Below are positions 150 to 52,823 of a stretch of DNA of 64,000 bases, one piece after another. Location of the stretch: IMG/VR virus record IMGVR_UViG_3300033068_001655; one strand, written 5' to 3'. The stretch's first letter is position 1. Each line of letters starts with the position of its first letter. The position numbers and the translations under genes are program-made. Source of the stretch: a virus (lineage: Duplodnaviria; Heunggongvirae; Uroviricota; Caudoviricetes). The notes under the pieces were generated by a model, which was given only the letters and a program-made list of their open reading frames with translations, was not told the DNA's origin and made no database searches.

Positions 150-262
150 ATATAGAGTAGATATGGCAACACTGGAAAATCCAGTACTCTCCATATTAGC
201 AGTGAGCAAGGGAATCGAACCCTATACATTTAAACGTACGTGCTGCTTTCCAGGCAGACCCA
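150..262 (-). pseudogene. Degenerate tRNA fragments (tRNA-Ser-like 3' T-arm/acceptor piece joined to a tRNA 5'-flank/start piece)
   Basis: The minus strand reads agggttcgattccc ttgctcact (T-arm + 3' acceptor strand) with no matching 5' acceptor. It is followed by aatatggagag, which copies the 5' flank and first 6 nt of tRNA-Ser at 1263-1275. The 206-228 segment resembles the 3' end of that tRNA-Ser. Confidence 0.35.
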
Positions 263-276
263 ATCACCATCATGGC

Positions 277-1113
277 TTACTCACTATTTTTTATAATATA
301 ATTTATTGTACTTCTTGAGACATTAAAATGTTTTGCAATATCAATTTGTTTTTTACCTTCACTATACATTTTAATAACATCTTCTTTATTAACTCTATTG
401 TATTTTATACCTAATTCATTTTTATATTTTTTTATTATATCACTTATTGTACCATTTGAGGCACTAAAATGTTTTGCAATATCAATTTGTTTTTTACCTT
501 CACTATACATTTTAATAACTAAATCTCTATCAATTTTATGTTGTTTTTCTTTATAATTTATTACTTTAGAATAGATTTCATGTTTATACTTATTATAAAA
601 ACTTATATCAGAGTGTTCTAATACATGACAGTTTGCACACAAAACATCACACTTATTAATTTCATCCTTTATTAGTTTAGAAAGATCATATATAGAGTTG
701 AATCTTTCACTAATACTACCTATTGAAAATTCCTTTTCGTTAGGATCTCTATGATGAAATGTTAAACTAGCAGGACATTTATTGTAACCACATTTTATAC
801 ATTCACTTCCACCATATTCTAAGTATATTAATTTAGATCTACTTCTTTCATTATTATCCTCATTGTAATGATGTTCTCTATGACAATTTTGACACAGTAT
901 AATACATTTATCTAATTCATTTTTTATTTTTGATAATCTATAATTTTTTGATTCTCCAAACTCAAAATCTTTATTATTTTTATCAATATGATGAAATGTT
1001 AACTGAAATATATTATTGTTTTGACAATTTTGGCATACACCATCTTTATTGTTTAATAATATAATTTTTTTTGCATATTTTAGTATTTTCTGTAATTTTA
1101 ATTTTTTTTCCAT
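277..1113 (-). CDS. HNH homing endonuclease with two tandem HNH motifs and two tandem C-terminal HTH repeats
   Basis: Two copies of the C-x2-C...FHH(I/R)D...N...LC-x-NCH-x-x-H pattern (HNH fold). The C-terminus carries a duplicated DVIKMYSEGKKQIDIAKHF helix-turn-helix. Sits next to the tRNA cluster. Confidence 0.7.
   Translation of the reverse strand: MEKKLKLQKILKYAKKIILLNNKDGVCQNCQNNNIFQLTFHHIDKNNKDFEFGESKNYRLSKIKNELDKCIILCQNCHREHHYNEDNNERSRSKLIYLEYGGSECIKCGYNKCPASLTFHHRDPNEKEFSIGSISERFNSIYDLSKLIKDEINKCDVLCANCHVLEHSDISFYNKYKHEIYSKVINYKEKQHKIDRDLVIKMYSEGKKQIDIAKHFSASNGTISDIIKKYKNELGIKYNRVNKEDVIKMYSEGKKQIDIAKHFNVSRSTINYIIKNSE
323..521. repeat. Perfect 56-bp direct repeat (323-378 and 466-521) inside the HNH gene, encoding the duplicated HTH
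   Basis: aaaatgttttgcaatatcaatttgttttttaccttcactatacattttaataac occurs twice, 143 bp apart. Confidence 0.85.
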
Positions 1114-1181
1114 TATTTCGATTATTTTATTTATATATTAAATAAACTAATCGAACTTTTCCAAATATGGATTTTTTATAG

Positions 1182-1269
1182 AAGAGAGCGAGGGATTCGA
1201 ACCCTCAACCCAGATTCCTCCGAGCTACCACTTTTCAAGAGTGGCTCTTCATCCAACCAGATGCTCTCC
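1182..1269 (-). tRNA. tRNA-Ser (anticodon UGA), type II with long variable arm
   Basis: Minus strand: ggagagc-at-ctgg..., anticodon arm ccact/cttgaaa/agtgg, long variable arm, T arm gaggg ttcgaat ccctc, acceptor gctctct. No encoded CCA. Confidence 0.85.
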
Positions 1270-1275
1270 ATATTG

Positions 1276-1347
1276 TGATTCCAGAGGGATTCGAACCCCC
1301 ATCTGATCGTTCGTAGCGACCTGTCCTATCCATTGAACGATGGAACC
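1276..1347 (-). tRNA. tRNA-Arg (anticodon ACG)
   Basis: Minus strand: ggttcca..., anticodon arm ggtcg/ctacgaa/cgatc, T arm tgggg gttcgaat ccctc, acceptor tggaatc. Confidence 0.85.
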
Positions 1348-2963: not shown

Positions 2964-2969
2964 CATTTG

Positions 2970-3044
2970 TGGAGACTCCAGTTATCGAAGCTGGGTCGCA
3001 AGGGCCCTTCCGCCCTCCGCTCTACCATTCTGAGCTAAATCTCC
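2970..3044 (-). tRNA. tRNA-like gene with non-canonical anticodon loop (6-nt ggaagg loop, or 8-nt if the closing pair is open)
   Basis: Acceptor ggagatt/agtctcc and D arm gctc agaatggta gagc are canonical, with a T arm. The anticodon region agggc ggaagg gccct lacks U33. Possible pseudogene. Confidence 0.45.
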
Positions 3045-3049
3045 ATTTG

Positions 3050-3122
3050 TGGAGCCGACGGGTTACGATCCCGTTCCTCTGGATTTTCAGTCCAGCGCAA
3101 TGACCACATCTGCCACAGCTCC
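3050..3122 (-). tRNA. tRNA-Phe (anticodon GAA)
   Basis: Acceptor ggagctg/cggctcc, anticodon arm ctgga/ctgaaaa/tccag, T arm acggg..cccgt. Confidence 0.8.
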
Positions 3123-3129
3123 AATTTTG

Positions 3130-3202
3130 GGTGTAAGACGGGACTCGAACCCGCAATACCTTGGTTCACAACCAAGTGCTTTGACCATTAAGCTACCTAC
3201 AC
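3130..3202 (-). tRNA. tRNA-His (anticodon GUG), no encoded G-1
   Basis: Acceptor gtgtagg/cttacac, discriminator C, anticodon arm cttgg/ttgtgaa/ccaag, T arm gcggg ttcgagt cccgt. Confidence 0.75.
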
Positions 3203-3204
3203 AG

Positions 3205-3279
3205 TGACCCCGGTGGGGCTCGAACCCACGACCCCCTGATTAAAAGTCAGGTGCTCTAAACCAACTGAGCTACGAAGTC
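3205..3279 (-). tRNA. tRNA-Lys (anticodon UUU)
   Basis: Acceptor gacttcg/cggggtc, D arm gctc agttggttta gagc, anticodon arm cctga/cttttaa/tcagg, T arm gtggg ttcgagc cccac. Confidence 0.85.
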
Positions 3280-3288
3280 AAATTTTTG

Positions 3289-3361
3289 TTCTCCCGGTAG
3301 GGCTCGAACCTACGATCCATGCATTAAGAGTGCGTTGCTTTACCAACTCAGCTACAAGAGA
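3289..3361 (-). tRNA. tRNA-Lys (anticodon CUU), one C·A mismatch in the anticodon stem
   Basis: Acceptor tctcttg/cgggaga, anticodon arm acgca/ctcttaa/tgcat, T arm gtagg ttcgagc cctac. Confidence 0.6.
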
Positions 3362-3370
3362 ATTTTCTTG

Positions 3371-3456
3371 TTCCCCCTACAGGACTCGAACCTGTGACCC
3401 ATCGTTTAAAAGACGATTGCTCTAAGCTTAACGCAAACCAACTGAGCTAAGAGGGA
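3371..3456 (-). tRNA. tRNA-Lys (UUU)-like with ~11-nt insertion in the D-loop
   Basis: Acceptor tccctct/aggggga; anticodon arm atcgt/cttttaa/acgat and T arm acagg ttcgagt cctgt are perfect. The D region gctc agttggtt-tgcgttaagct-ta gagc is ~11 nt too long (86 nt total). Confidence 0.55.
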
Positions 3457-3464
3457 ATATATTG

Positions 3465-3535
3465 CACGCCCAAAAGGATTCGAACCTTTATCAACGGTTT
3501 TGGAGACCGTCATGCTACCGTTGCACCATAGGCGT
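3465..3535 (-). tRNA. tRNA-Trp (anticodon CCA)
   Basis: Acceptor acgccta/tgggcgt, anticodon arm acggt/ctccaaa/accgt, T arm aaagg ttcgaat ccttt. Confidence 0.85.
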
Positions 3536-3541
3536 ATGTTG

Positions 3542-3613
3542 TGCGGACTATCGGAATCGAACCGATCTCTTAGGTGCTTCAAACCTACGCTAAACCGTCT
3601 CAGCTAAATCCGC
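3542..3613 (-). tRNA. tRNA-Phe-like (anticodon GAA; loop ttgaagc)
   Basis: Acceptor gcggatt/agtccgc, anticodon arm taggt/ttgaagc/accta, T arm atcgg ttcgatt ccgat. Confidence 0.6.
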
Positions 3614-3624
3614 ATTATATTTTG

Positions 3625-3697
3625 TGGACCCTCAGGGAATCGAGCCCTGTCCTTTGGATTTTCAGTCCAACGTACGCACCAGCTATACGAAAGGTCC
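3625..3697 (-). tRNA. tRNA-Phe (anticodon GAA), paralog of the 3050-3122 gene
   Basis: Acceptor ggacctt/agggtcc, anticodon arm ttgga/ctgaaaa/tccaa, T arm caggg ctcgatt ccctg. Confidence 0.75.
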
Positions 3698-3777
3698 ATT
3701 ATTATTTTGGGTGCCCCTTATCTAGTATTTCTACCACAGGTAATCTTATCATATTCGGATTAAACCGAACCCCCTTG

Positions 3778-3850
3778 GGTGAAAGACGGGGATCGAACCC
3801 GCGACATCCAGAACCACAATCTAGCGCTCTACCACTGAGCTACAATCACC
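3778..3850 (-). tRNA. tRNA-His (anticodon GUG) with genomically encoded G-1 opposite C73; two U·U mismatches in the acceptor stem
   Basis: g-gtgattg-ta-gctc agtggta gagc, anticodon arm ctaga/ttgtggt/tctgg, T arm gcggg ttcgatc cccgt, acceptor 3' ctttcac + C. Confidence 0.65.
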
Positions 3851-3859
3851 ATATATTCG

Positions 3860-3932
3860 CACAAGCCAAGGGAGTCGAACCCTTTCCATCCGAGGTTTTG
3901 GAGACCTGGTGCATACCATTATGCTGACCTGT
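3860..3932 (-). tRNA. Degenerate tRNA-Trp-like (anticodon CCA) gene
   Basis: Acceptor acaggtc/ggcttgt and T arm aaggg ttcgact ccctt are sound, with anticodon loop ctccaaa. However position 8 is A, the D-loop is 4 nt, there is a C·C mismatch in the anticodon stem and the variable loop is 7 nt. Likely pseudogene. Confidence 0.4.
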
Positions 3933-3941
3933 ATTTTTTTG

Positions 3942-4014
3942 TTCCCCCGATGGGCCTCGAACCCACTACTCCTTGGTTAAAAGCCAAGTGCCCGTCCACA
4001 TGAGCTTCGAAGGA
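3942..4014 (-). tRNA. tRNA-Lys (anticodon UUU), third copy
   Basis: Acceptor tccttcg/cggggga, anticodon arm cttgg/cttttaa/ccaag, T arm gtggg ttcgagg cccat. Position 8 is A. Confidence 0.65.
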
Positions 4015-4017
4015 TTA

Positions 4018-4428
4018 TTAGTATTTCATAATTTCTCTTATAAATTCATCAATTGTATTGAATTTATTTTTTTTATATAATTTTAATATTTTTATTTTAG
4101 ATATATTACCATTTTTACTTTTTCTTCTATTGATAGAATGTTTTAAATTTTCTTGTTGTGTCAGACATTCTAAATTATTAACATTATTATTTTGTCGGTC
4201 ACCATCTATATGATTAACTTGTAAATCTTCACTATAATTATTAACAAATGTCATTGCTACAATTCTGTGTACAAGAAGCGTCTTTGACTTTTTATTATTT
4301 GTTAGACTCACATCCATATATCCTCTATTATTTAATCTTACTCTCATTATTCTATTTGTCTTTGTATTTATTATGACACCATCCTCATTTATAGAATAAT
4401 TTTCAAATCCTTTAATTTTTTTAAACAT
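4018..4428 (-). CDS. HNH homing endonuclease (NUMOD4 + HNH_3 type)
   Basis: N-terminal GFENYSINEDGVI (NUMOD4-like) and LVHRIVAMTF...VNHIDGDRQNNNVNNLECLTQQENLKH (HNH_3). Bounds the 5' side of the tRNA island. Confidence 0.75.
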   Translation of the reverse strand: MFKKIKGFENYSINEDGVIINTKTNRIMRVRLNNRGYMDVSLTNNKKSKTLLVHRIVAMTFVNNYSEDLQVNHIDGDRQNNNVNNLECLTQQENLKHSINRRKSKNGNISKIKILKLYKKNKFNTIDEFIREIMKY

Positions 4429-5566: not shown

Positions 5567-5770
5567 ATGCCTGCTAAATCGAGACAGCAATTAAAATACA
5601 TATTTGCGATGCGTCGTAAATATAAAAATAAAAAAAGTGCTCCTAAACATATGAAGTGGGTATTTAACAAAGATTGGACCCACAATGTCAAAGCATCGGG
5701 GTTACCAACCAAAGTTAAAAATTTTCAAACCTATATATCCGAGAATTATGATGCTACTACTAAAAAGTAG
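5567..5770 (+). CDS. Small basic protein, DUF3008-like (MPAKS...KxxGLPxKV)
   Basis: MPAKSRQQLKYIF...KASGLPTKVK resembles the phage DUF3008 family from memory. Converges on and overlaps the tyrS 3' end by ~25 nt. Confidence 0.4.
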   Translation: MPAKSRQQLKYIFAMRRKYKNKKSAPKHMKWVFNKDWTHNVKASGLPTKVKNFQTYISENYDATTKK

Positions 5771-6999
5771 TTTTTCTTACCTCTCTGAACTATAATAAAT
5801 TTGTCATTTATCAAATCACCATCAGTTACGATGTAGTTATCTTCTCTTTTTATTTTATTTATTGCAACAGAGTTTTCTTTTAAGGCTCTTCTTGCTTCAC
5901 TAACAGATTTTAAGAACCCAGTTTTAAATAAAATATCAGTCATTGATATACCATTTACAATATCTTTCATTGGAATATTTGCCATTGGTAATCCACTAAA
6001 TATATCTAAAATTGTTTCATTATCAAGTGAATTTAAGTTACCGTTATTGAATAGAATGTTTGATGCTTCTACTGCTTTGTTAAACTCTTCTTCACCATGA
6101 ACCATTATAGTGATTTCTTTAGCCAATGTTTTTTGTAATAAAAACAAATGTTTGGCTTTATTGTGTTCTTCTATTAAATTATCAATAGTTTCTTTATCTA
6201 AAAATGTAAAGATTTTAATAAATCTTTCTGCATCTGCATCATCAGTACTTACCCAAAATTGGAAAAACTTGTAAACAGATGTTTTATCTTTATCTAACCA
6301 TATATTCCCACCTTCTGATTTACCAAATTTTGTACCATCAGCTTTTGTTAAAAGAGGACAAGTCATTGCAAATGCTTCTCTACCTGGGAACATCTTATGT
6401 ATCAATTCAGTACCGGTTGTTATATTACCCCATTGATCAGAACCACCCATTTGTAATAAACAGTTATGTTCTTTATTAAGGTGTAAGAAATCGTACCCTT
6501 GAATCAATTGGTAAGTAAACTCTGTGAAAGACATACCTTCACCTTCAATACGGTTTTTTACAGACTGTTTTGATAACATGTAATTTACGGTAATTCTTTT
6601 ACCAATGTCTCTTACAAAGTCTATAAAACTAAACTTTGACATCCAATCGTAGTTGTTAAGAACTGGTGTATCACCTAAAAATCTGGTTAAAGTATTTTTT
6701 ATACCTTCTACATTTTTATTAAGTATTTCTTCATCTAAAAGATTTCTTTCAGAAGATTTACCAGAAGGGTCACCGATCATACCAGTAGCACCACCGACAA
6801 CTGCGATTGGATTATGTCCAAAGTTCTTCATGTGTTTTAACAGAATTATTGGAACTAAACTACCTATATGTAGAGAATCTGACGTTGGGTCAAATCCAAT
6901 ATAAGCGGTGGTGGCTTCTTTTAAAAGTTGAGCCTCCGTTCCGGGTATCATATCATGTACTAACCCACGCCATTTTAATTCTTCTACTATATTTTTCAT
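5746..6999 (-). CDS. tyrS: Tyrosyl-tRNA synthetase, bacterial type with C-terminal S4 domain
   Basis: HIGH-class motif DPTSDSLHIGSLVP, GGSDQWGNI, KMSKS-equivalent KFGKS, C-terminal S4-like region. Confidence 0.9.
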   Translation of the reverse strand: MKNIVEELKWRGLVHDMIPGTEAQLLKEATTAYIGFDPTSDSLHIGSLVPIILLKHMKNFGHNPIAVVGGATGMIGDPSGKSSERNLLDEEILNKNVEGIKNTLTRFLGDTPVLNNYDWMSKFSFIDFVRDIGKRITVNYMLSKQSVKNRIEGEGMSFTEFTYQLIQGYDFLHLNKEHNCLLQMGGSDQWGNITTGTELIHKMFPGREAFAMTCPLLTKADGTKFGKSEGGNIWLDKDKTSVYKFFQFWVSTDDADAERFIKIFTFLDKETIDNLIEEHNKAKHLFLLQKTLAKEITIMVHGEEEFNKAVEASNILFNNGNLNSLDNETILDIFSGLPMANIPMKDIVNGISMTDILFKTGFLKSVSEARRALKENSVAINKIKREDNYIVTDGDLINDKFIIVQRGKKNYFLVVAS

Positions 7000-7403
7000 T
7001 ATGCTAATACTTCTTTAATTACTTCTGATACAACTTTTCTATCCACTTGTGCAGTAGCAAACTCTTTCATAATTCCACCAACATTGGTAATCCCTGATGC
7101 TACAAGTGCATTAACTTTTACAACAACATCTTCTCTTGTCATAGCAGCTGGAAGTAAAGCTTCAACCATTTCTAATTGAACTACAGACTCAGCATCACCA
7201 GAAGTTGCAATAACTTCTTTAAGAGATTTCGCAGTTTTATTAAGAATTTTAATTACTTCTGCATCAGAAAGACAATCTACTCCTGTATTTTTCTCAATAG
7301 TTTGGATCTCTCCTTTTACCACAGAAAGTAAGTTTTTTGCTACAGCATTTTTCTCTTTGAAAGCTGTCATGTAGTCTTTGCTAATTTGCTCTTTTAAATT
7401 CAT
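6999..7403 (-). CDS. yqeY: GatB/YqeY domain protein
   Basis: MNLKEQISKDYMTAFKEKN...LLSVVKGEI matches the YqeY family. Its stop overlaps the tyrS start (operon). Confidence 0.7.
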   Translation of the reverse strand: MNLKEQISKDYMTAFKEKNAVAKNLLSVVKGEIQTIEKNTGVDCLSDAEVIKILNKTAKSLKEVIATSGDAESVVQLEMVEALLPAAMTREDVVVKVNALVASGITNVGGIMKEFATAQVDRKVVSEVIKEVLA

Positions 7404-7660: not shown

Positions 7661-9256
7661 ATGAAATACTTAAAATTATTTGAAGGCTTTGAATCTAATA
7701 GGATTAGTGCCATACTATCATTCTTAAATAAAAAACTAAATAAAACTAATGCTGATAGATTCTTAGGGGATCTAATTAGATTGGCAAAGAAATATGATTT
7801 TCCATTAAGTACGTTAACTGATAACGAAATACAATACCTATCTGTAAATAAAGCTTTAGAAATCAAGGAAGAAGCTATGAATCCTAGTGGTATTTATGCC
7901 ATCAAGTATTGGTTTTCATTAGAAAAAGGTTATTTATGTCAAACTGGGGTTGGTAATCAAGAAATGAATTTTGGTAACTATGAACAGTTTATGGAAACTG
8001 GTAAATCGGATTTGACTAAAGGGCATTTAGATTATTTGGTAGATACTTATAATTTAAAAGGTTTAATTGTACCTTGTAGTTTTGATACGTTGCAAAGTGG
8101 TGATAAGGTAGTAATGGCTTGTAATGATACCTTTTATGGTAATGCTAATGAATTAGCGTACGGTGTAATATATGTTGATAATAATGACGGTGAATATTAC
8201 TTTTTTAATAATAAATTTGAGGGTACAACACCTGATGATGGATATACAGAACCAGGATATAGATACTCTTGGATTTTAGGATCTCAAGAGTATGAAAGTG
8301 AGGATCACTGTATGATTCATAAAATTATTGAGGATGACAAACCATTAAGATTTAATGGTATTTCTAAGGAAGAAGAGACTTTAAAATCTGTTTGGGATTT
8401 CAATCTACCATTGAAAAATAATCCACCAATTGAATTAGAAACATGGCAAGGTAAATATAATGAAACTTTAAAGCTTGTAAAAGAAGCTAACTTTGCAATT
8501 GTTCTTTATTTAGATTATGTATTGGTTAAAGATATGAGTAAAGAAGAAATTTCTAAAGAAAGAAAGGATAGTAGAAAAGATGCCTTATTCTTAATGAAAA
8601 ATGAAGATATTAAAAAGGCAAATATTAAAAGATACTTAGAAAAACTATTTGATAAACTAGGAATTGAGAAGGATAAACAGGAATTGAAAAATCTTAACAG
8701 TGTAATTAAATCAACTATTCTTGGTGAGTATTTTCTTATTACAAGTTATAATTCTGGCTTCATGGATAGATTGACTAATTTTACAACATCTTTATATAGA
8801 GTTATGTCAAAAAATGATGAGGAATACTACTTCAATGTATTACTTGAAGTTTTTAAAAAAATTAAGAAATATCGTTTAGAAGTATCATCGAAATATATTA
8901 CTAATATTAAATATATTAAATCTTTAAAATCTGATAACAGTGATAAGGCGAATGAGGTACTTAAAATAGTTCTTAGAATAGGTAAAACTATTTCTGATTA
9001 TTTTAGTAATAAGGAGATTACTACAATTGAAGATCTTAAATATACTCAAATGAAATTAAAAATGATTTCTGGGTTATATCAAGATGATATTTTTTATTTG
9101 TCAGGATTTATGTCAAGTTTATTAGATTCAATGGATACTGATACAGTTGAAATAGAAAAAAGTTTAAAAAGAACTTATTCTGATAAAGAATATGGAAAGG
9201 ATATTAAAAAATTAGAAAAGTTAGAAAGAATTATCAATAATGATTATTTAAAATAA
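7661..9256 (+). CDS. Hypothetical 531-aa protein with CTS-like N-terminus (MKYLKLFEGFE)
   Basis: Long ORF. TAATATATAGTT motif 3 nt upstream of the ATG. Confidence 0.5.
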   Translation: MKYLKLFEGFESNRISAILSFLNKKLNKTNADRFLGDLIRLAKKYDFPLSTLTDNEIQYLSVNKALEIKEEAMNPSGIYAIKYWFSLEKGYLCQTGVGNQEMNFGNYEQFMETGKSDLTKGHLDYLVDTYNLKGLIVPCSFDTLQSGDKVVMACNDTFYGNANELAYGVIYVDNNDGEYYFFNNKFEGTTPDDGYTEPGYRYSWILGSQEYESEDHCMIHKIIEDDKPLRFNGISKEEETLKSVWDFNLPLKNNPPIELETWQGKYNETLKLVKEANFAIVLYLDYVLVKDMSKEEISKERKDSRKDALFLMKNEDIKKANIKRYLEKLFDKLGIEKDKQELKNLNSVIKSTILGEYFLITSYNSGFMDRLTNFTTSLYRVMSKNDEEYYFNVLLEVFKKIKKYRLEVSSKYITNIKYIKSLKSDNSDKANEVLKIVLRIGKTISDYFSNKEITTIEDLKYTQMKLKMISGLYQDDIFYLSGFMSSLLDSMDTDTVEIEKSLKRTYSDKEYGKDIKKLEKLERIINNDYLK

Positions 9257-9601
9257 TAAGTATAAATCATTTTGTCTAGCTTCTAATTCTGTTAAAAGAA
9301 AAACACATTCTCTTCTTAAATCTTTAAGTTTTAAAAAATCTGAGGTATTACTTACTTTAGATAATTGATCGTTAAGATTATCAATCTCAATTTTTATCAT
9401 ATCTATCATTAAGCTCATTTCTTTGATTATATCACCTTTTAAATCAAGTACTAAGGATTTAAAATAAGGATTTATCATAATAATTCCTTTATAATCACTA
9501 GAAGTAAAATTCTTCATGATTCTTTTAAGTATTTCTATGACTTCATCCTCAGTACCTGAAAGGTGTAGTTTATCGAGATATTCTAATAAGCTTAACTTCA
9601 T
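9248..9601 (-). CDS. Hypothetical protein
   Basis: 117-aa ORF. Confidence 0.4.
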   Translation of the reverse strand: MKLSLLEYLDKLHLSGTEDEVIEILKRIMKNFTSSDYKGIIMINPYFKSLVLDLKGDIIKEMSLMIDMIKIEIDNLNDQLSKVSNTSDFLKLKDLRRECVFLLTELEARQNDLYLLF

Positions 9602-10452
9602 ATCATCTTTTTACATTTATATATAAGACTGCTACTAAATCCTTTTTTTAATATATCCTTGATTGAGTAACCATCTTTTAACAAACCTTTTACCAATTCT
9701 TTTTTATCAGATTTTAATAACTTATCTTCTATTCTATCCCACTTTCTAGACATTATTGGTAGATTTAAACGAACACATTGTTCTTTAATATCTTTAAGTA
9801 TATTATACTTTGATATAAAGATAATTGAACAATTTTCATATATTTTTGCATCTTTAGTTTCCTTAGTTAAATGAGTATAGAAATATTCTAATATAGAAGA
9901 CCAAGATTCATGACATTTAATTATCAATCTACCTTTTTTATTAATAGAGCCATCACCGTCAATAAACCCTATTATTAAACTAAATAATTGTTCATCATTT
10001 AACCAATTAGGTAGTATAGGAGGTATTTTAGTTTTATTGGATTTCCAATTAAAATCTCTAGTAATTTTATCTATAGTTATTTTATCAGATAAAACTACAC
10101 TAATTCTACTTTCATTTTCATATACTTTTACATGACCCAAATGATCTGTTATTTTTAATATATGTAATCTATCCTTAGTTGATATATTTATTTGTATTCT
10201 TTTATCTTTTGTAATATGTCCATCTGCTAACATAAACCCCAACCAATAACAAGAAATATTATCATATTCTATTAATTTGGAATATTTAAAACTATTATTG
10301 TTTTCATTAAAACTTCTTTTTATTTTAAAAAAATGTGCTTTCTTTTGTATATAGTTCCAAGATAATCCTAAATCAGTAATAATAGTTTCTTTACTTGAAG
10401 ATGGATAATTTTCTTTTAAATAGTTCTCTAACTTTGTTTTAGTGTGTCTCAT
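9598..10452 (-). CDS. LAGLIDADG homing endonuclease (double-motif, free-standing)
   Basis: YWLGFMLADGHI and LIIGFIDGDGSI motifs. TAATATATAGT motif ~20 nt upstream of the ATG. Confidence 0.8.
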   Translation of the reverse strand: MRHTKTKLENYLKENYPSSSKETIITDLGLSWNYIQKKAHFFKIKRSFNENNNSFKYSKLIEYDNISCYWLGFMLADGHITKDKRIQINISTKDRLHILKITDHLGHVKVYENESRISVVLSDKITIDKITRDFNWKSNKTKIPPILPNWLNDEQLFSLIIGFIDGDGSINKKGRLIIKCHESWSSILEYFYTHLTKETKDAKIYENCSIIFISKYNILKDIKEQCVRLNLPIMSRKWDRIEDKLLKSDKKELVKGLLKDGYSIKDILKKGFSSSLIYKCKKMI

Positions 10453-10470: not shown

Positions 10471-10914
10471 CTATATATTAATATTTAGATTTCTCTTTAG
10501 ATCTAATTTAATATCTCTTGCTTTAATATCTTCTTTTTTATCCCAAGTTTTCTTACCTTTAGCAACTGCTATTTTTATTTTTATACGGTTATGTTTAATA
10601 AACATACCCAGTGGAATTGCGGTCGTACCTTTATCTTCCAATTTTCTTTTGATTCGAGTAATTTCTTTTTTATTTAAAAGAAGTTTCTTATCACGATTTT
10701 CTTCGTGTTTATCTAAAGTGTGTGCTGACTTATAAGGAGCGACTTTTAGATTTTTAATCCAAACTTCATTATCCTTTATATAAATGAAAGCATCCACCAG
10801 AGTCACATTACCCATTCTAACTGACTTTACTTCACTACCAACCAATACAATACCACAATCAATCTCTTCTAAAAAGATATAATCGTATCTGGCTCTTCTA
10901 TTTAATGCTATCAT
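10471..10914 (-). CDS. smpB: SsrA-binding protein SmpB (trans-translation factor)
   Basis: ALNRRARYDY...GSEVKSVRMGNV...KKLLLNKKEI...GMFIKHNRIKIKIAVAKGKKTWDKKEDIKARD aligns along its full length to bacterial SmpB. Confidence 0.85.
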   Translation of the reverse strand: MIALNRRARYDYIFLEEIDCGIVLVGSEVKSVRMGNVTLVDAFIYIKDNEVWIKNLKVAPYKSAHTLDKHEENRDKKLLLNKKEITRIKRKLEDKGTTAIPLGMFIKHNRIKIKIAVAKGKKTWDKKEDIKARDIKLDLKRNLNINI

Positions 10915-11452
10915 ATTTTATAATTTTATAAGAATCTCCTTCCCTGTTCTTAATTACTTTTATTATATTATCTTTGTTTTGTTGAGTTATAATCACTGCT
11001 AAATCTGAGGAATATAGTGTAGATGAACCACCCATAAATGAACCATTACCAGTTGTATTTAGTGGACAAGTAAGTATCAACTTAATATCACAAATTGATT
11101 TATTATTTCTATTGTCTCTTAAATAATCTCTTACATCATAAATAGTTGACTGTATTGCTCTAGAAGCTTCCATATCACGATTAGTGAAGTTATTTCTTTC
11201 TCTAAATAAAGTTCTTATATCATTTATATCTAATACAATGTAATCAATTTTATGTTCGTTATTTAAAACTTGGTCAATCTTCATATCTCTAAAAATAGAC
11301 TTCATAGAAAAAGATGAACTTAAATCTATTTTCTTGGTTGAACCAAGATTAGAAATAATTTCATCTTTAACTCTTTCATCTAAAAATCGATAACCAATTA
11401 AGGTTGTCTCATTTTTACTAATTAGATCATATAAATAATCTATAGTTTCCAT
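10898..11452 (-). CDS. Hypothetical protein (possible degenerate RecA/KaiC-like fold)
   Basis: 184 aa; no Walker A motif seen. Confidence 0.35.
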   Translation of the reverse strand: METIDYLYDLISKNETTLIGYRFLDERVKDEIISNLGSTKKIDLSSSFSMKSIFRDMKIDQVLNNEHKIDYIVLDINDIRTLFRERNNFTNRDMEASRAIQSTIYDVRDYLRDNRNNKSICDIKLILTCPLNTTGNGSFMGGSSTLYSSDLAVIITQQNKDNIIKVIKNREGDSYKIIKYDSIK

Positions 11453-11769
11453 TATAGATATTGCTCTACAAGTTCAGACAATTTTTCTTTAGTAGTCATA
11501 CCAACACTTCTATCTACAATTTCTCCATCTTTATAGATTAAGATTGTAGGAATGTTTCTAATACCTAACTCCGCGACTTTTTCACCATTTGGGGTTGCGT
11601 CTAATTTACCAACACTAACCTTTCCTTGAAAGTCAATTGAAATTTGGTCTACAATTGGTGCTATTTGACGACATGGTCCACACCAAGTTGCCCATATATC
11701 TACTAATACTACTCCACTTTCTACAAACCCATCATAGTTTGTTTCATTTAATTCTGTTATAAATGCCAT
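11452..11769 (-). CDS. trxA: Thioredoxin
   Basis: WATWCGPCRQIAP active site, 105 aa. Confidence 0.9.
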   Translation of the reverse strand: MAFITELNETNYDGFVESGVVLVDIWATWCGPCRQIAPIVDQISIDFQGKVSVGKLDATPNGEKVAELGIRNIPTILIYKDGEIVDRSVGMTTKEKLSELVEQYL

Positions 11770-11816: not shown

Positions 11817-13055
11817 TTAAAATTCACAAGCAACACACTCACTAACCTCTGTTTTAGATAAAATATTATCAACCATTGCATTATGTCTATCATCTACTAT
11901 TTCTTTTCTTACTGTAAGTTCATAAAGTAAAGCAGTCGCATCATCAATTTCTTGATCAGGTTCAATCATATGTTTTTCCAATACAGAAAAAGCAATTGAC
12001 TTATCGTGTTTGTACCTTTCTAATAGTGATTTTATTATTTTAATTTGTTCAGTTAGTTTATATCCTCTTAGATTAAGAATTGTCCTTGGTAAAAACTTAA
12101 TTGTATTTGATAATAGCTTCATATCTTCTATATCAACTCCACCATCTACATAATCTTCATTTATAAATAAAGGTCTCAATTGATTCCATATATTTTTCAA
12201 TTCTTGATTATTATAAATGTTTCTTAAATAAAATAGTAAATCTTCACCTTTATGAATTGCTAGAAGATTGTTATCAATGAATACTTGTTCTTTTTTAGTT
12301 TTTAAAGTCCATAGATTCACATCTTTGTTGTATGTCTTTTTGACGTGTTCTATACAATCTAAATCTTGTTCTATTGTAAAATAGTTATTAAGTATTTTAT
12401 AATTGTTAAACATATTGAAATATCTATCTTGAAATCTAACTTTATAAACGTCTTGAAGCTGACGTACTAAAACATATTGAATAATATCTAATTCAAATAA
12501 GTTTAAATCAACTTTAAGTTCTTCTGATTTTTTTACAATTCTAATTGCTGTATGACAAGGTGTTTTTAAATTAGTTATTTTAAGCTTACCAGTCTTTAGA
12601 AATTTTTCAAATTCTGGTGTCCAATAAAACCTATCTTCTTCAATTGAATAACCAACTGCAGTACAGTTTATATCAAATGATTTGATAATAATTTCTGGAT
12701 TATGAGTATTTGATTTATAACTAACGTAGTTGAACATACCGTCGGTGGTTGACTCACAAATAGAGTAATAATTTTTAGCTCTGTCAATAAATCTAAGACC
12801 AGAGTAATCATCATACCAAACGTTTTCTTCATCTTCTTTAAATGAAAAGAAATACTCTTTTCTATCTTCGTTATAATTTTCTAAAAGTCCATCAAACAAA
12901 AAAACATCAATATCATTGATGATTGCTTTTGTACCGGAGACTTCCTCCCATATAAGATTTGATATAGAACCACCTGCAATAAACCCTCTTTTGGGTAGAC
13001 CCCATTGTGATTTTATTTTATTGATAGCATTCCTTGCTAATTGTTCAACATTCAT
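11817..13055 (-). CDS. Putative nucleotidyltransferase (Pol-beta superfamily fold)
   Basis: N-terminal GFIAGGSISNLIWEEVSGTKAIINDIDVFLF carries GS...DxD. Confidence 0.4.
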   Translation of the reverse strand: MNVEQLARNAINKIKSQWGLPKRGFIAGGSISNLIWEEVSGTKAIINDIDVFLFDGLLENYNEDRKEYFFSFKEDEENVWYDDYSGLRFIDRAKNYYSICESTTDGMFNYVSYKSNTHNPEIIIKSFDINCTAVGYSIEEDRFYWTPEFEKFLKTGKLKITNLKTPCHTAIRIVKKSEELKVDLNLFELDIIQYVLVRQLQDVYKVRFQDRYFNMFNNYKILNNYFTIEQDLDCIEHVKKTYNKDVNLWTLKTKKEQVFIDNNLLAIHKGEDLLFYLRNIYNNQELKNIWNQLRPLFINEDYVDGGVDIEDMKLLSNTIKFLPRTILNLRGYKLTEQIKIIKSLLERYKHDKSIAFSVLEKHMIEPDQEIDDATALLYELTVRKEIVDDRHNAMVDNILSKTEVSECVACEF

Positions 13056-26548: not shown

Positions 26549-27637
26549 ATGACAAACGAAATTTTAAACCCAGAATTAGGAAACCCAGATTTCGAGCTTT
26601 TATTCGAGGAAAAAAGCTATAGAAAGGGTAAAAATATGAGTGATAAAGATCTTGATGCTCTTTATAGCTCTATTAAATTAGAAGTGCCACAAGTAGGTAA
26701 TGTGGTTAGATCTAAATACCAAGGTATTATGGCAAATCAGTTTGTATTTAGCGTTGACGGATTCAAAGATGATGTTAGAGTTGAAGACAAACCAGGTGAA
26801 GCTAAATACCTTAAAAATTGCAACACTGGAGATGAGGTTGATGTTTTAATTACCGAGATAAATCACGGTCAATATTTCATCAAAGGAAGTATAGCTTCTT
26901 TATATGAGTCAAGAGCTCACGAAAACCTTAAATCTCTAGAGGAAGGAGAATCAGTAACTGCCTACGTTAGAGCACTTAACCCAGCTGGTTATGATGTTGA
27001 GATTACAAATGGAGGAGTAACTCTTCCAGGATTTATGCCAAATACCTTAGCAGGTATCAACAAACTTTACGACCCAACTTCAATTGTTGGAGATACGTTC
27101 CAAGTTATGATTGAGTCTTTCTCAGAACATGAAGGAACTTATATCGTAAGTCGTAGAAAATACTTACAAACTTTAATTCCAGAAGAAATTAGTAATCTTG
27201 AGTTTAATGTGTTGTATAGTGGTAGAGTAACTGGAACAACACCATTTGGTATCTTTGTCGAGTTCAACGAGTGTTTAACTGGTATGATTCACAAAGCAAA
27301 TGTGACTGAAGAGTGGCAAAACAGAATCTCCGAAATTAAACCAGGACAAGAGATTGAGTTCTTTATTAAAGAAATCATTAAGGAGAAAATTATCCTTACT
27401 CAAGTTCTGAGAGAAACACTTTGGGACACCATCAAAAACGGTCAATTGATCGATGGTAAAGTAAAAGATGTTAAGCAATTTGGAGCTTTAGTTATCTTAG
27501 ATGATGAAACAGTTGGATTAGTCCACACATCAGAAATGGAGAAACTTGGTAGAAAGCTTACATCTGGACAGGACATCAAAGTAAAAGTTTTATCAGTTGA
27601 TAGACAAAGTCGTAAAATTTTTCTTACAATTGGATAA
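26549..27637 (+). CDS. Multi-S1-domain RNA-binding protein (ribosomal protein S1-like)
   Basis: Three S1 repeats recognised, including C-terminal GKVKDVKQFGALVILDDETVGLVHTSEM...GQDIKVKVLSVDRQSRKIFLT. Confidence 0.7.
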   Translation: MTNEILNPELGNPDFELLFEEKSYRKGKNMSDKDLDALYSSIKLEVPQVGNVVRSKYQGIMANQFVFSVDGFKDDVRVEDKPGEAKYLKNCNTGDEVDVLITEINHGQYFIKGSIASLYESRAHENLKSLEEGESVTAYVRALNPAGYDVEITNGGVTLPGFMPNTLAGINKLYDPTSIVGDTFQVMIESFSEHEGTYIVSRRKYLQTLIPEEISNLEFNVLYSGRVTGTTPFGIFVEFNECLTGMIHKANVTEEWQNRISEIKPGQEIEFFIKEIIKEKIILTQVLRETLWDTIKNGQLIDGKVKDVKQFGALVILDDETVGLVHTSEMEKLGRKLTSGQDIKVKVLSVDRQSRKIFLTIG

Positions 27638-31051: not shown

Positions 31052-32944
31052 TTATTTTTTAGAGTCTTTTTTATCTGTTGTAGTTTCAACTACTGCATCA
31101 GTATCTACTACATTTCCGGTTTTCATACCTTTACCCATCATTTCCATGATTTGCATTCCAAGTAATCCATCTAATGAACCGTTACCTTGTCCACTACCAT
31201 TGATTAGTAAATCTGGCATAATTTTCACTTTACCTTTACCAATCTCTTCTGTTACTTTGAATGTCGTAAAGTTGTCTTTACCCATTGCATCAACAGCCAA
31301 TCTATACGCTTCTGCAGTTGATTTACCCACTGATAAGATTGCATTCGCTTCTGCTTCACCAATAACGGTTTTTCTTGTAGCTTCTGCTTTAGCATTCAAT
31401 GTTGTAGCTTCTGCGTTAGCTTCTGCTGCAATTTTTACTGAACGAGCTTTACCAGTTGCGTCTTTAACCGCGGAGTCAGCTAATCTTTCAGAGATTTGAA
31501 CACCTTGGTCAGCTTTTACTAACTCACCTTGCATATCAGCAATAGCAGTTTCTTTTTCAAGAGTTTGACGTTGTACTTGAGCTTTTTTCTGAGTCTCAAA
31601 TGTTACTTGTTGCTCTTCTGCAATTTTACGGTCAGTTAATGTTTTCATCAATGACTCTGGTGGAGTAATATCTCCGATAAGTGTATCTACAGCGTGTACG
31701 TTATATTCGTCCAATACTTTAGAGATCTCTTTCTTAGCAGCATCTTGTCTTGATTGACGAGTAGATAAGAACGCGATAACGTCTGAATCTTGAGCAGAGT
31801 TACGGAAGTAGTTACCAATTGTTGGTTCTAATACTTGAGATACAAGTGCTTGTGTAGAACCGAAACGAGCAATTACTTTAGGTGCTTCATTCATTGGAAT
31901 GTGGATAATCTGTGATACATCCAAATTGAATGGGAAACCGTCTTTAGAACGTACTGTAATTGTACTTAAACCTTTATCTAAGTTGTGAGACTCTGTACGA
32001 GCATTTGCCCAGTTAAGTACAAGATTTGTTGTAGGTACAATCTCAATCTTAGTTGTATAAGGGTTGATTGCATATTTACCTGGACCCTTAGGTTCAGCCC
32101 AAACACCTTTTTGTCCTTTAGATACTAAGTTACCGTGTTTAAACCCAGCACCAGTTACGTCAACTCCTTCTTCACCAACATATGAAATAACAACACCACA
32201 ATTACCAATTGGAATATTAGTCATTTGTACTTCTTCAACTTGAACAGCCCAAGGGTTTAAGTTGTAAGAACCTGCTTGAATAACTTGACCTTGTAATCCA
32301 CGATTACCACCTGCTGCTAAGAAAGCATCAAAATCTTGGAAGTTATTGTGTCCTTCAACAGATTCTCCTGCAATTTGACCTGAACTAAGTGGTTCACCAT
32401 CTAATGTAGTAACAATACCCACCATATTTTCTTGAACGCTAACTTGTTTAACTGCAGATACTTCAAATAAGAATGTATTGATTTTATAGCTACCGTTAGT
32501 AATATAAGCGGCTTGACGACCTTTTTGACCACCATTTTGAAGGAAAGCTGTAGCATCTTGATAATTATCACATTCAACTTTACGTCCTAAGATACGTCCT
32601 GTTGGTGGAACTTTACCATCTTTAGAAGAAATTAAACCAATGTGTCCCTCAGGAATAACTATAAATCCTTGCATATCAACTGAATACTGCCATGGCCACA
32701 TAAACCAATGTAAACCAGTTTCTAACATTTTTGCTTGTAAACCTGCTTCACCATTTACTGCGATGATTCTATCACCACTTAATTGTTTGTTCTCACCAAA
32801 AAGAACGAATTTTTTCGTTACTAAACCAATCTTGTTCTCAGGAACAATAACTAGTCCAAAAAATACACGAAAAATGAACTTGTACATAAGAATACATACT
32901 AGTCCGAGAATTGCTGGCCAATAGGCCAAAATCTGTGTTACCAT
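31052..32944 (-). CDS. SPFH/band-7 (flotillin-like) membrane protein, 630 aa
   Basis: N-terminal TM helices, an SPFH core, and a long Ala/Glu/Gln-rich flotillin-type coiled coil (AEEQQVTFETQKKAQVQRQTLEKE...AEANAEATTLNAKAEATRK). GC ~40% against a ~27% background. Confidence 0.8.
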   Translation of the reverse strand: MVTQILAYWPAILGLVCILMYKFIFRVFFGLVIVPENKIGLVTKKFVLFGENKQLSGDRIIAVNGEAGLQAKMLETGLHWFMWPWQYSVDMQGFIVIPEGHIGLISSKDGKVPPTGRILGRKVECDNYQDATAFLQNGGQKGRQAAYITNGSYKINTFLFEVSAVKQVSVQENMVGIVTTLDGEPLSSGQIAGESVEGHNNFQDFDAFLAAGGNRGLQGQVIQAGSYNLNPWAVQVEEVQMTNIPIGNCGVVISYVGEEGVDVTGAGFKHGNLVSKGQKGVWAEPKGPGKYAINPYTTKIEIVPTTNLVLNWANARTESHNLDKGLSTITVRSKDGFPFNLDVSQIIHIPMNEAPKVIARFGSTQALVSQVLEPTIGNYFRNSAQDSDVIAFLSTRQSRQDAAKKEISKVLDEYNVHAVDTLIGDITPPESLMKTLTDRKIAEEQQVTFETQKKAQVQRQTLEKETAIADMQGELVKADQGVQISERLADSAVKDATGKARSVKIAAEANAEATTLNAKAEATRKTVIGEAEANAILSVGKSTAEAYRLAVDAMGKDNFTTFKVTEEIGKGKVKIMPDLLINGSGQGNGSLDGLLGMQIMEMMGKGMKTGNVVDTDAVVETTTDKKDSKK

Positions 32945-35322: not shown

Positions 35323-36432
35323 ATGATAATAAATTTAAAAAGTCAAACAGACCTTTCGGGGTTTTATGTAGTTTATGAAGGTTCAACAAACTTAGAAAAA
35401 CCAGGATGGTATGGAATATCACACTTAATGGAACATCTTGTTTGTAAATCATTTGATCACTTACAAGAAGATTTTGATAGAGATGGTATTGATTGGAATG
35501 CTTATACTTCTTCTAATGAAATCGTATTCTATTTAACTGGATTGGATGAAAAAGTAAACAAATATAAGAATCAATTTGTAGAATTACTAACTTCTTTTAA
35601 TGTAACTAAAGAAGAATTTGAAAATGAAAGAAAAATTGTTCTTGAAGAGTATATGGATTGTTTCAACGATCAGACTCAATCACACATGTTAAACCTTTCA
35701 AGAAAGTTATTCAATGATTATGATCCAATTGGGTTGAAAAAAGATTTAGAGAATTTGAAATTTATGGATTGTCTTAACTTTTTTGAATTACAATATGCTA
35801 AACCAACTAAAATTATCAATGTTTCTAAAAACAAGGATTATAAAAATAAATCAATTGAATTTCAAGAAAGAAAAATTGTAACTAATTTGAGTTTTGGTAA
35901 TCACGATGTTGATTTGGAATTAAATAATGATTTTAAAGATAAAACCTCTATTGTAATTTTATCTCCAGTGATTGAAGAAGATTTTGCTTACGTACACTTT
36001 ATAAATGCAATGTTATCATTAGGTTTAAAATCACCTTTATATCAAGAGATTAGAGAAAAGAAAGGATTAGTTTATTACGTTCATTGTTATCAATCAAGAG
36101 TAAATGATAAAGGATTGAATTCTATTTCGACTTTAACTTCAAATAGAAACTTTAATGAGGTTGTTGACGCTGTTAAAAAAGTGATTACAAACCCAGATAA
36201 GTTTTTAACTAAAGAAAGATTTAACATTGTTAAAGATTACTATGAGGTAAGAAAACAAAAAGACGAAATCAATAGATATGGTGCAGTAAATCAATGGATA
36301 AACCCTGCAGGTTGGTCTGTGTATGACATATTAGAAGAGGTTACTTTGAAAAAGATTAGAGAAGTTTATGATAAGTATTATGACTTTGATAAGTTTTATA
36401 TTTCATCAGACAAGAAAGAATTTAAAAAATAA
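35323..36432 (+). CDS. M16-family (insulinase/pitrilysin-like) zinc peptidase
   Basis: Inverted zinc motif HLMEH near the N-terminus (ISHLMEHLVCKS); 369 aa. Confidence 0.55.
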   Translation: MIINLKSQTDLSGFYVVYEGSTNLEKPGWYGISHLMEHLVCKSFDHLQEDFDRDGIDWNAYTSSNEIVFYLTGLDEKVNKYKNQFVELLTSFNVTKEEFENERKIVLEEYMDCFNDQTQSHMLNLSRKLFNDYDPIGLKKDLENLKFMDCLNFFELQYAKPTKIINVSKNKDYKNKSIEFQERKIVTNLSFGNHDVDLELNNDFKDKTSIVILSPVIEEDFAYVHFINAMLSLGLKSPLYQEIREKKGLVYYVHCYQSRVNDKGLNSISTLTSNRNFNEVVDAVKKVITNPDKFLTKERFNIVKDYYEVRKQKDEINRYGAVNQWINPAGWSVYDILEEVTLKKIREVYDKYYDFDKFYISSDKKEFKK

Positions 36433-51809: not shown

Positions 51810-52440
51810 ATTTTATATATTTTTTTAGATTATCTAGAGCCCATAATGCTTGAAAATTGGTGTAGTGATTTAACTCAATTGCCTCTTCATAAGTTTTTGC
51901 CATAGATATTGGTTTTATATGATCGAAATGCCATTCTCCATGGTTTTCTAATGTCATACCTTCAGTAAAAGTTGATTTAATATGAATTATAAATTCTTCT
52001 ATTGAACATCCTATTATAATTGAAGTTTTTGTTTTCTTTTTATAATTTAGACTTTTTATAGATGATCTTATAGTGTTTCTAATTAGTCTAGTCATTCTAT
52101 AAACCTCATCTTTTGATCTTTTTTTCTCTGACTTTCTTTTTATTTCATTAGACCTCTCTCTATTATTAGAGACCCATTCTTTCAAATAATTAGGATTTTC
52201 TTCAAAGAATTTATCTCTTGCTCTTTTTGTTATTTCTGGATTTTGTAATTTATAAATTTTACTTTTTTCTCTTAAAATATCTCTATTTTTTTCTCTATAT
52301 TTCCTAGAAGATTCTTTTTTTCTACATTTTTTACAAATAAATCCATTCTTTGTAAAAAATTCTTCATCTAATTCAACGATACAAGTAATGCAGGTTTTCA
52401 TAAAGCTAATATTTTTATAATATATATTAATATATGGCAA
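51796..52440 (-). CDS. HNH-family nuclease with N-terminal zinc ribbon
   Basis: CITC...CKKC N-terminus; C-terminal EWHFDHIKPIS...NFQALWALDNLKK HNH-like motif. Confidence 0.45.
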   Translation of the reverse strand: MPYINIYYKNISFMKTCITCIVELDEEFFTKNGFICKKCRKKESSRKYREKNRDILREKSKIYKLQNPEITKRARDKFFEENPNYLKEWVSNNRERSNEIKRKSEKKRSKDEVYRMTRLIRNTIRSSIKSLNYKKKTKTSIIIGCSIEEFIIHIKSTFTEGMTLENHGEWHFDHIKPISMAKTYEEAIELNHYTNFQALWALDNLKKYIKYEPK

Positions 52441-52456
52441 CCACCTTTATCATATT

Positions 52457-52663
52457 TTATTTAGATTCATCTATTAGTTCATTTATTTTTTCTTGTAGAA
52501 TTGGAAAATCATAATTTAAAACTATATCTGATATTTCTTCTGAAAAATCATCCTCAAATACTAAGCAATCTGTGTTTTCAATAAATTGAATTAAGCTTGG
52601 TAATCCTTTTTGATATACGTTTAAAATTTTTTCCTTACTTAAATAACGTTTATTACTTCCCAT
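52457..52663 (-). CDS. Hypothetical small protein
   Basis: 68-aa ORF. Confidence 0.35.
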   Translation of the reverse strand: MGSNKRYLSKEKILNVYQKGLPSLIQFIENTDCLVFEDDFSEEISDIVLNYDFPILQEKINELIDESK

Positions 52664-52809
52664 ATTTTTTCTAATTTATTTATTTTTTTAATTCTTCTAA
52701 GTTTTCTATACTCTATATTATTCATTCCTCTTGGACCTGGCCAGCCTTGTGGTCCGGTTACACCTATTGGACCAACCAAGCCAGTTGGTCCAGATATACT
52801 ATTATTCAT
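52639..52809 (-). CDS. Small ORF (56 aa) with a collagen-like (G-X-Y)7 run
   Basis: MNNSISGPTGLVGPIGVTGPQGWPGPRGMNNIEY... Hand-translated; overlaps the previous ORF by ~23 nt in another frame; not in the track. Confidence 0.3.
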   Translation of the reverse strand: MNNSISGPTGLVGPIGVTGPQGWPGPRGMNNIEYRKLRRIKKINKLEKIWEVINVI

Positions 52810-52823
52810 ATTTTTAAAAAAGT

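Follow-up and report, generated by a model that had tools for sequence, protein, structure and literature searches.

A virus-encoded SmpB without a detectable tmRNA gene in a 64-kb Caudoviricetes sequence, and its possible partnership with host tmRNA

Bacteria rescue their ribosomes mainly by trans-translation, a pathway on which several phages depend. The 64,000-nucleotide (nt) stretch of the IMG/VR virus record IMGVR_UViG_3300033068_001655 that was analysed here, and that is called the window throughout, carries on its reverse strand (10471-10914) a gene for SmpB, the SsrA-binding protein which partners transfer-messenger RNA (tmRNA) in this pathway. The gene is an ATG-to-stop open reading frame (ORF) of 147 amino acids (aa), the size of a full-length SmpB. 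Its product matches Pfam PF01668 at 169.4 bits (cutoff 27, E 5.9e-50, profile positions 1-141 of 143) and the NCBIfam equivalogs NF003843 (173.4 bits, cutoff 130) and TIGR00086 (162.2 bits, cutoff 119), as well as 15 distinct SmpB sequences of the PDB, including that of Aquifex aeolicus (1P6V, E 2.7e-34, residues 2-143). Judged from its sequence the ORF is unambiguously SmpB, which upholds the call made in an earlier, sequence-only reading of the window. Bacterial SmpBs (A. aeolicus 1P6V, M. tuberculosis 5ZEY, E. coli 7ACJ, T. thermophilus 4V8Q) align to it over their full length and share the same oligonucleotide-binding core and basic C-terminal tail with KGKK, an aromatic residue and DK(R/K), but the window protein is virus-encoded and reaches no more than 52% identity to any cellular SmpB recovered. 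Furthermore, ssrA lies directly 3' of smpB in 11 of the 40 bacterial loci sampled, whereas no ssrA adjoins the gene of the window. An attempt to name a donor or a host from the nearest cellular SmpBs (Treponema, Firmicutes; at most 52% identity) was dropped, as the sampling was skewed by the search patterns; the neighbour-joining tree is rough and unbootstrapped.

The window protein was aligned with E. coli SmpB and eight phage SmpBs, and residues are given in E. coli numbering. N17 is retained, together with an aromatic residue at H22, K89, L90, I142 and K143. At E31, L91, N93 and K124, core residues implicated in binding the tRNA-like domain (TLD) of tmRNA, E31 is replaced by D and the other three are identical. 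The tail (AKGKKTWDKKEDIKARD...) is full-length and basic; it keeps KGKK at 131-134, carries W at 136 and keeps D137 and K138, so that DKR becomes DKK through the conservative change R139K. Among the 80 IMG/VR loci with SmpB relatives that were collected, 17 (L019-L035) make up the clade of the window, and most SmpBs of this clade have DKR at 137-139. It has been described that aromatic residue 136 stacks on G530, activating EF-Tu, with His to Tyr tolerated, and that the KGKK and DKR motifs are required for accommodation and tagging, while mutants in these motifs still bind tmRNA (PMC4151336). Mean column identity over the 17 clade SmpBs is 80%. In unsaturated pairs dN/dS (Nei-Gojobori) ranges from 0.05 to 0.15, the value being 0.125 between the window and L019 (dS 0.72), 0.05 between L019 and L020, and 0.15 between L021 and L023; the smpB gene of the window is under strong purifying selection. 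The protein is predicted to be a working SmpB, neither a relic nor a truncated decoy, and a canonical role is suggested because the conserved residues are those for tmRNA binding and for contacts with the decoding centre and the mRNA channel.

No tmRNA gene was found in the window. ARAGORN, run on both strands with permuted forms included, returned 13 tRNAs and no tmRNA, and again no tmRNA at 90% thresholds; its sole call at 85%, a 'permuted' tmRNA, is spurious and built on the tRNA island. Rfam 15 gave no tmRNA-family match in the window, either at gathering thresholds or at E<=10 with permissive filters. A home-made TLD scan, which looks for a T-arm and a 7-bp acceptor stem with G3:U70 whose 5' strand lies 150-700 nt upstream, recovered phage tmRNA controls and yielded in the window only an artefact of the tRNA island. 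A gap census of the window left, outside the tRNA islands, a single tmRNA-sized gap at 52402-52823 (422 nt), which is occupied by two small ORFs and shows no more structure than its shuffled versions do (z = -0.05). One of these reverse-strand ORFs, a mini-ORF of 56 aa, has collagen-like GXY repeats (GPTGLVGPIGVTGPQGWPGPRG), and the other encodes ~68 aa. The window is densely coding and the flanks of smpB are fully so, with no tmRNA within ~2 kb of the gene. That no tmRNA is detectable in the window, as the sequence-only reading had stated, was thus borne out by ARAGORN, Rfam, the TLD scan and the gap census alike.

Megablast with the smpB region as query retrieved nothing from the phage collection, because the relatives are too divergent and tblastn is needed. 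With tblastn, SmpB identity was 62.6% to LR745206 (634,780 bp), 54.7% to LR756502 (642 kb), 48% to LR756504 (636 kb), ~47% to 15 records of Lak Prevotella megaphages and 39% to LR756501/3 (735 kb). Most of the other named-phage matches are prophages in which smpB stands at the very edge of the record, a position that fits host flank beside an ssrA attachment site, and the remainder are short fecal or host-named contigs. In the window, 26.4 kb are collinear, in reversed orientation, with ~290-337 kb of LR745206 at 64-77% nucleotide identity. The order common to both runs from a sigma factor through a Gad2-like nucleotidyltransferase (NTase), thioredoxin, an ORF of 184 aa (222 aa in LR745206) and smpB to an ORF of 117 aa (123 aa in LR745206), and a syntenic tRNA island lies ~10 kb from smpB in the one as in the other; LR745206 also has a T4-like portal gene. 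This collinearity over ~26 kb with a curated huge phage (LR745206.1), with the same gene order around smpB, sustains the earlier description of the gene as phage-encoded. The largest phage genomes and the Lak phages have been placed in one clade, 'Mahaphage', with predicted Bacteroidetes hosts (PMC7162821). Collinear homology to its curated member LR745206 assigns the window to this group, and it is predicted to belong to a huge phage of ~0.6 Mb.

The SmpBs of these Mahaphage genomes (LR745206, also named Ig12092_scaffold_5, LR756502, LR756504, LR756501 and Lak) are orthologous to that of the window. More than 100 SmpB clusters with identities of 66-100% came out of a protein search, and for some of them the contigs measure 612-649 kb; SmpBs identical at 84-86% lie on contigs of 611,835, 639,601 and 648,731 bp (P0033, P0055, P0036), and an identical SmpB is encoded on several metagenome contigs, where its gene has the same neighbours, homing endonuclease included. 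Collinear DNA similarity to the window was seen in 16 of the 17 clade loci, and locus L071 showed no DNA similarity to it. A study of 2020 described both SmpB and tmRNAs from huge phages, and its supplementary GenBank file labels the LR745206 orthologue 'SsrA-binding protein' (PMC7162821). A phage SmpB in the Mahaphage lineage is therefore already known, and the novelty implied by the sequence-only reading was overstated. In 200 supplementary files of the same study (Al-Shayeb et al. 2020), searched for per-genome tmRNA calls, coding-sequence annotations were seen and no 'tmRNA' strings.

The whole 634,780-bp genome of LR745206 was reassembled from 13 overlapping chunks. ARAGORN in circular mode found 59 tRNAs and no tmRNA in it, and no tmRNA at the 95% threshold either. 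At 90% and 85% its calls in this genome are artefacts only. Taken together, the ARAGORN calls at 85-90% are spurious 'permuted' tmRNAs, of which some arise from tRNA clusters or their surroundings and one overlaps an ORF; the LR745206 call at 367,066-367,509 (ps90) consists of a degenerate tRNA-Ala followed by a 246-aa ORF. Rfam, applied to all 13 chunks at gathering thresholds only, reported tRNAs, the DUF805b motif and GOLLD RNA and no tmRNA family, and neither strict nor relaxed TLD scans of LR745206 gave a credible candidate. Profiles built for nhmmer from 3 and then from 12 phage tmRNAs (full length, 5' block and 3' block) produced few matches below E ~1; these involved no part of the model but its T-arm/acceptor end, fell at tRNA genes or next to them, and were rejected. 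The complete genome of LR745206 appears to have no detectable tmRNA, an observation that is new here. The degenerate tRNA-Ala is a second tRNA-Ala(UGC) at 367,082-367,156 (+), with G3:U70 and a weak D-arm; it is called by ARAGORN only at 95% and missed by Rfam, and its 3' end (UGUCUCCA) is identical to that of the Lak tmRNA.

The Lak phages differ in that they add a tmRNA, none being detectable in the window or in LR745206. In Lak-A1 (MK250016.1) it lies at 223,026-223,421 (-), which corresponds to L143 25026-25421, and encodes the tag DDEIDFRMAA. Over the complete Lak-A1 genome ARAGORN calls no tmRNA by default and one at 223,028-223,421 (-) at 95%; in the TLD scan the gene shows a one-piece TLD, GGGGACA ... 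TCCGG-TTCGACT-CCGGA-TGTCTCC-A, and against Rfam RF00023 it is divergent, with E 4e-18. The gene is kept in 15 of 15 Lak records at 87-100% identity, and when the Lak and L090 tmRNAs were searched by blastn in the phage collection, Lak records only, or nothing, came back. Rfam at gathering thresholds, ARAGORN at 95% and the TLD scan all detect the Lak tmRNA, and therefore have the power to find a divergent megaphage tmRNA; other phage tmRNAs are detected by these methods as well, and all three are negative on LR745206. The Lak-A1 tmRNA adjoins the portal gene and sits in a 1.1-kb ORF-free gap. The genes flanking it, the T4-like portal included, map to 189-194.5 kb of LR745206, where ORFs are packed and no gap exceeds ~130 nt.

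Across the wider set of viral loci, tmRNA was absent within 10 kb of smpB in all 17 clade loci (0/17), against at least 20 of the 63 other viral loci, in which a canonical tmRNA lies no farther than ~2 kb from smpB. The TLD scan gave fifteen of these 20, and ARAGORN at 92% added five; Rfam, applied to two, scored 85 bits, and ten align well together (alignment A4, 425 columns). No tmRNA was found within 20 kb of smpB in LR756502, LR756504 and LR756501, of each of which 40-80 kb were sampled, nor beside the portal gene of LR756504. The phage smpB-ssrA pairs (L090; the L091, L063 and L074 group) resemble the window in having a phage-borne SmpB, at 40-48% identity, and differ from it in that a canonical tmRNA lies no farther than 2 kb from smpB (in L090 and L091 it scores 85 bits with Rfam). 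The L090 branch is taken to be phage because of its relatives L053 and L057, which have a T4-like portal gene beside smpB. A scan of IMG/VR for the 3'-end signature GGTTCGANTCC-N6-CTCCAC found none on a clade contig among the matches listed and is uninformative.

A gene linking SmpB and tmRNA loci across phages was considered as a functional partner and discarded, since it encodes the T4-like portal protein. This portal gene is directly beside smpB at L053 8106-9893 (-) and L057 8091-9896 (-), two IMG/VR relatives in the Lak/L090 SmpB branch; in Lak-A1, by contrast, it stands beside the tmRNA instead. In L091 a GOLLD RNA (8440-8865, 305 bits) lies 1.1 kb upstream of smpB (10001-10411) and ~2 kb from the tmRNA (10897-11291, -). 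LR745206 likewise has a GOLLD RNA at ~420,875-421,280 (287 bits), between tRNA genes, and the window has none. The cluster of GOLLD, SmpB and tmRNA might hint at a translation-related role for GOLLD.

Table 1. Features around smpB in the window, with the evidence for each
Feature	Position	Strand	Evidence or remark
smpB	10471..10914	-	ORF, Pfam, NCBIfam, PDB, residue conservation, dN/dS
184-aa clade-restricted ORF	10898..11452	-	stop overlaps smpB start by 17 nt
thioredoxin	11452..11769	-	Pfam Thioredoxin E 8e-26; PHROG 22; position kept in LR745206
412-aa nucleotidyltransferase-like protein (Gad2 / NTP_transf_6-like)	11817..13055	-	NTP_transf_6 23.5 bits, cutoff 25
sigma-70 family factor, 200 aa	13195..13797	-	Sigma70_r2 and r4_2; LR745206 orthologue at L005 17023-17676
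LAGLIDADG homing endonuclease	9598..10452	-	Pfam LAGLIDADG_3; PHROG 4645 and 11023
117-aa conserved ORF, no family match (Pfam, PHROG)	9248..9601	-	123-aa LR745206 orthologue, L005 20437-20808
tRNA island	2969..4014	-	11 ARAGORN tRNAs (Phe, His, Lys, Trp) and one Rfam-only tRNA, 3371-3436; no tmRNA
tRNA-Ser(UGA) and tRNA-Arg(ACG)	1181..1347	-	ARAGORN, Rfam
tyrosyl-tRNA synthetase	5746-6999	-	Pfam tRNA-synt_1b 258 bits and SYY C-terminal domain
YqeY-like protein	6999-7403	-	Pfam YqeY 43 bits
S1 RNA-binding-domain protein	26549..27637	+	Pfam S1, E 6.9e-22; context only

The neighbourhood of smpB is listed in Table 1. The gene is part of a packed, same-strand string with the sigma factor at its head, followed by the NTase, thioredoxin and the 184-aa ORF. 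The overlap between the stop of this ORF and the start of smpB (ATGATAGCATTAAATAG) recurs in LR745206, and its arrangement suggests translational coupling. For the 184-aa protein the predicted fold is that of a RecA/RAD51 paralogue (Sak4- or RadB-like), and the protein may be a pseudo-ATPase, because its sequence is without the GK[ST] Walker A motif; it was considered as a partner of SmpB in trans-translation and set aside, the fold showing no evident link. A scan for promoters and terminators found no enrichment over shuffles and no clear internal signals. Downstream, the LAGLIDADG gene starts 18 nt after smpB in the window, whereas in LR745206 smpB is directly followed by the orthologue of the 117-aa ORF. 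The endonuclease gene is a recent insertion, since it is not found at that position in LR745206, and the 117-aa ORF is the ancestral 3' neighbour of smpB. A gene identical to the NTase-like one has a precomputed PF26128 Gad2 match in L001, and its LR745206 orthologue encodes 430 aa. The Gad2 family is anti-Gabija, and the NTase-like gene may be an anti-defence gene in the same string as smpB.

The region is rich in translation genes, with tRNA islands, tyrosyl-tRNA synthetase, the YqeY-like protein and the S1-domain protein; such a translation-support repertoire has been described for huge phages (PMC7162821). Within the tRNA complement, an Rfam tRNA-Sec-like match at 202-284 (-), of 35.9 bits, was considered as a suppressor and rejected, as it folds as a divergent type-II tRNA-Ser(GGA) at a lowered threshold. 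ARAGORN misses this type-II tRNA by default, and the LR745206 counterpart (344,031-344,115) scores 47.4 bits with a gathering score of 47. The Rfam-only tRNA of the island scores 35.7 bits, and ARAGORN is silent on it even at lowered thresholds. A tRNA-Phe-like gene at 2969-3044 (-) has an 8-nt anticodon loop, in which ARAGORN reads 'gaag' as an anticodon of four bases; the gene could be a decaying paralogue or could suppress +1 frameshifts, and LR745206 has similar oddities at 407,364-407,437 ('gtag') and 419,836-419,923. An HNH/NUMOD4 homing endonuclease gene (4018-4428, -) abuts the island. A Pfam survey of 59 ORFs of the window further recorded a Band_7/SPFH protein (31052-32944), an M16 peptidase (35323-36432), SIR2, an NAD-dependent DNA ligase, a DnaJ-domain protein and a dephospho-CoA kinase, a content that is typical of the accessory repertoire of huge phages.

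The explanation that we consider best, and to which we give an even chance, is that the gene encodes a functional SmpB, placed in a translation-support region, which works with the tmRNA of the host. The window, LR745206 and probably LR756502 appear to form a subclade without a tmRNA of its own, and host tmRNA would be used because a phage of this subclade appears to have no other. The phage protein would attach to the Ala-tmRNA of the host at its TLD and, together with EF-Tu, deliver it to ribosomes stalled on truncated mRNAs, where its tail would be placed in the empty mRNA channel and the ribosome released. Trans-translation would thereby be kept running during infection and ribosomes freed for the synthesis of phage proteins, with a benefit expected when the supply of host SmpB falls or non-stop mRNAs accumulate, as late in infection, when host expression is compromised. 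That the protein pairs with host tmRNA, and that the phage profits from this, is what we infer.

A half-system in the phage of the window is made plausible by precedents, namely phages with ssrA only and an endosymbiont with smpB only. Phages which encode a tmRNA include Bacillus phage G, cluster-C mycobacteriophages such as Bxz1, Mar_Mega_1 and Melnitz, and in the sources consulted no SmpB is reported for them (PMC4131195, PMC12484599, PMC9723777, PMC9004378). They resemble the window in that one half of the system is encoded by the phage and the other would come from the host, and they are its mirror image in that the RNA is phage-encoded there and the protein here. In Carsonella ruddii PC smpB is kept at a dN/dS of 0.14 without ssrA (PMC4131195). 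The likeness lies in an smpB under purifying selection, with a similar dN/dS and no detectable ssrA; the difference is that the endosymbiont is without another source of tmRNA, whereas the host cell supplies tmRNA to the phage. The statement of the sequence-only reading that SmpB functions strictly with tmRNA is accordingly slightly overstated.

Several points weigh against the use of host tmRNA. The window samples 64 kb of roughly 0.6 Mb, and a tmRNA could sit in the other ~90%; LR745206, with an SmpB just 62.6% identical, need not represent the phage of the window. The two Lak genes are ~284 kb apart, and the Lak tmRNA, at 54 bits against a gathering score of 47, lies below the ARAGORN default, so that LR745206, where Rfam was run at gathering only, could hold a tmRNA that is more divergent still and escaped detection. 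In leave-one-out runs nhmmer recovered the Lak tmRNA at E ~0.7 only, and the negatives of these profiles carry no weight. Much of this bears on the main rival, which we hold to be less likely, namely that the phage has a tmRNA of its own outside the window, as Lak has, and hence a complete trans-translation pair, possibly with a phage-specific tag. It is a real possibility because Lak carries both genes at such a distance, in all 15 records, and it gains from the at least 20 other viral smpB loci with an adjacent tmRNA, from the report of both tmRNAs and SmpB in huge phages by Al-Shayeb et al. (PMC7162821) and from the ease with which megaphage tmRNAs are missed. It is opposed by LR745206, negative by three methods that detect the Lak tmRNA and without room at the position syntenic with it, and by the lack of any tmRNA within 10-20 kb of smpB in the 17 clade loci, LR756502, LR756504 and LR756501, or beside the LR756504 portal. 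The choice posed by the sequence-only reading, between a phage tmRNA elsewhere and the tmRNA of the host, is the correct frame, and it has been narrowed here, not closed; both situations occur among the relatives (Lak has a tmRNA, none is detectable in LR745206).

The same reading had also suggested that the protein interferes with host tmRNA, and this is not favoured, as the C-terminal tail motifs for accommodation are intact (PMC4151336). A decoy or inhibitor of this kind would bind host tmRNA or ribosomes unproductively and shut down host trans-translation, with the aim, for instance, of stopping the tagging and degradation of phage proteins or of blocking a tmRNA-dependent defence; to this we assign a very low probability. 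The lack of a phage tmRNA would fit it, and TLD-only RNAs which possibly titrate SmpB, described for a mycobacteriophage (PMC4131195), make manipulation by phages plausible. Yet loss-of-function SmpBs that bind tmRNA carry tail truncations or KGKK/DKR mutations (PMC4151336), whereas the full-length tail, KGKK, the aromatic residue 136 and DKK/DKR are conserved clade-wide, the whole-protein dN/dS of ~0.1 matches a working factor, and the region is otherwise full of translation-supporting genes. Small, too, is the probability we give to a role independent of tmRNA or to pairing with some non-canonical RNA, for example an aberrant one that resembles tRNA-Ala, as has been suspected for Carsonella PC. 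The dN/dS of 0.14 of its smpB without ssrA (PMC4131195) and the independent SmpB functions reported in Aeromonas veronii (PMC11722516) speak for such a role, and the degenerate tRNA-Ala(UGC) of LR745206, with its G3:U70 and weak D-arm, could be a candidate partner. However, the conserved residues are the contacts for tmRNA binding, the decoding centre and the mRNA channel, which points to canonical function, host tmRNA is expected in any bacterial host, and the tRNA-Ala-like gene keeps its anticodon arm, leaving no obvious place for SmpB, and was seen in LR745206. A tmRNA-independent or non-canonical role is very unlikely and has found no positive support. The preferred explanation remains a functional SmpB working with host tmRNA.

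As SmpB in huge phages has already been published, the gain is incremental. Two observations are modestly new. First, a complete genome of the subclade appears to be without a tmRNA, in contrast to the sister Lak lineage and to other jumbo phages, which possess it. Second, the default threshold of ARAGORN can be too high for the tmRNAs of megaphages, so that ARAGORN-based inventories of SmpB and tmRNA in huge phages may undercount tmRNAs. A more far-reaching possibility, which we hold to be improbable, is that the whole ~0.6 Mb megaphage subclade keeps SmpB under strong purifying selection without any tmRNA gene, the protein taking over host tmRNA or acting with a non-canonical RNA or without tmRNA. 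If true, a takeover of host tmRNA would mean phage control of the ribosome-rescue and tagging system of the host, and an SmpB acting with a non-canonical RNA or without tmRNA would be the first from a virus to function independently of tmRNA. Phages with the RNA half of the system are known, and a protein-only lineage would show that viruses top up either component. It would also offer a handle on whether a viral SmpB can drive cellular tmRNA, and whether this alters tagging or the availability of ribosomes in infection.

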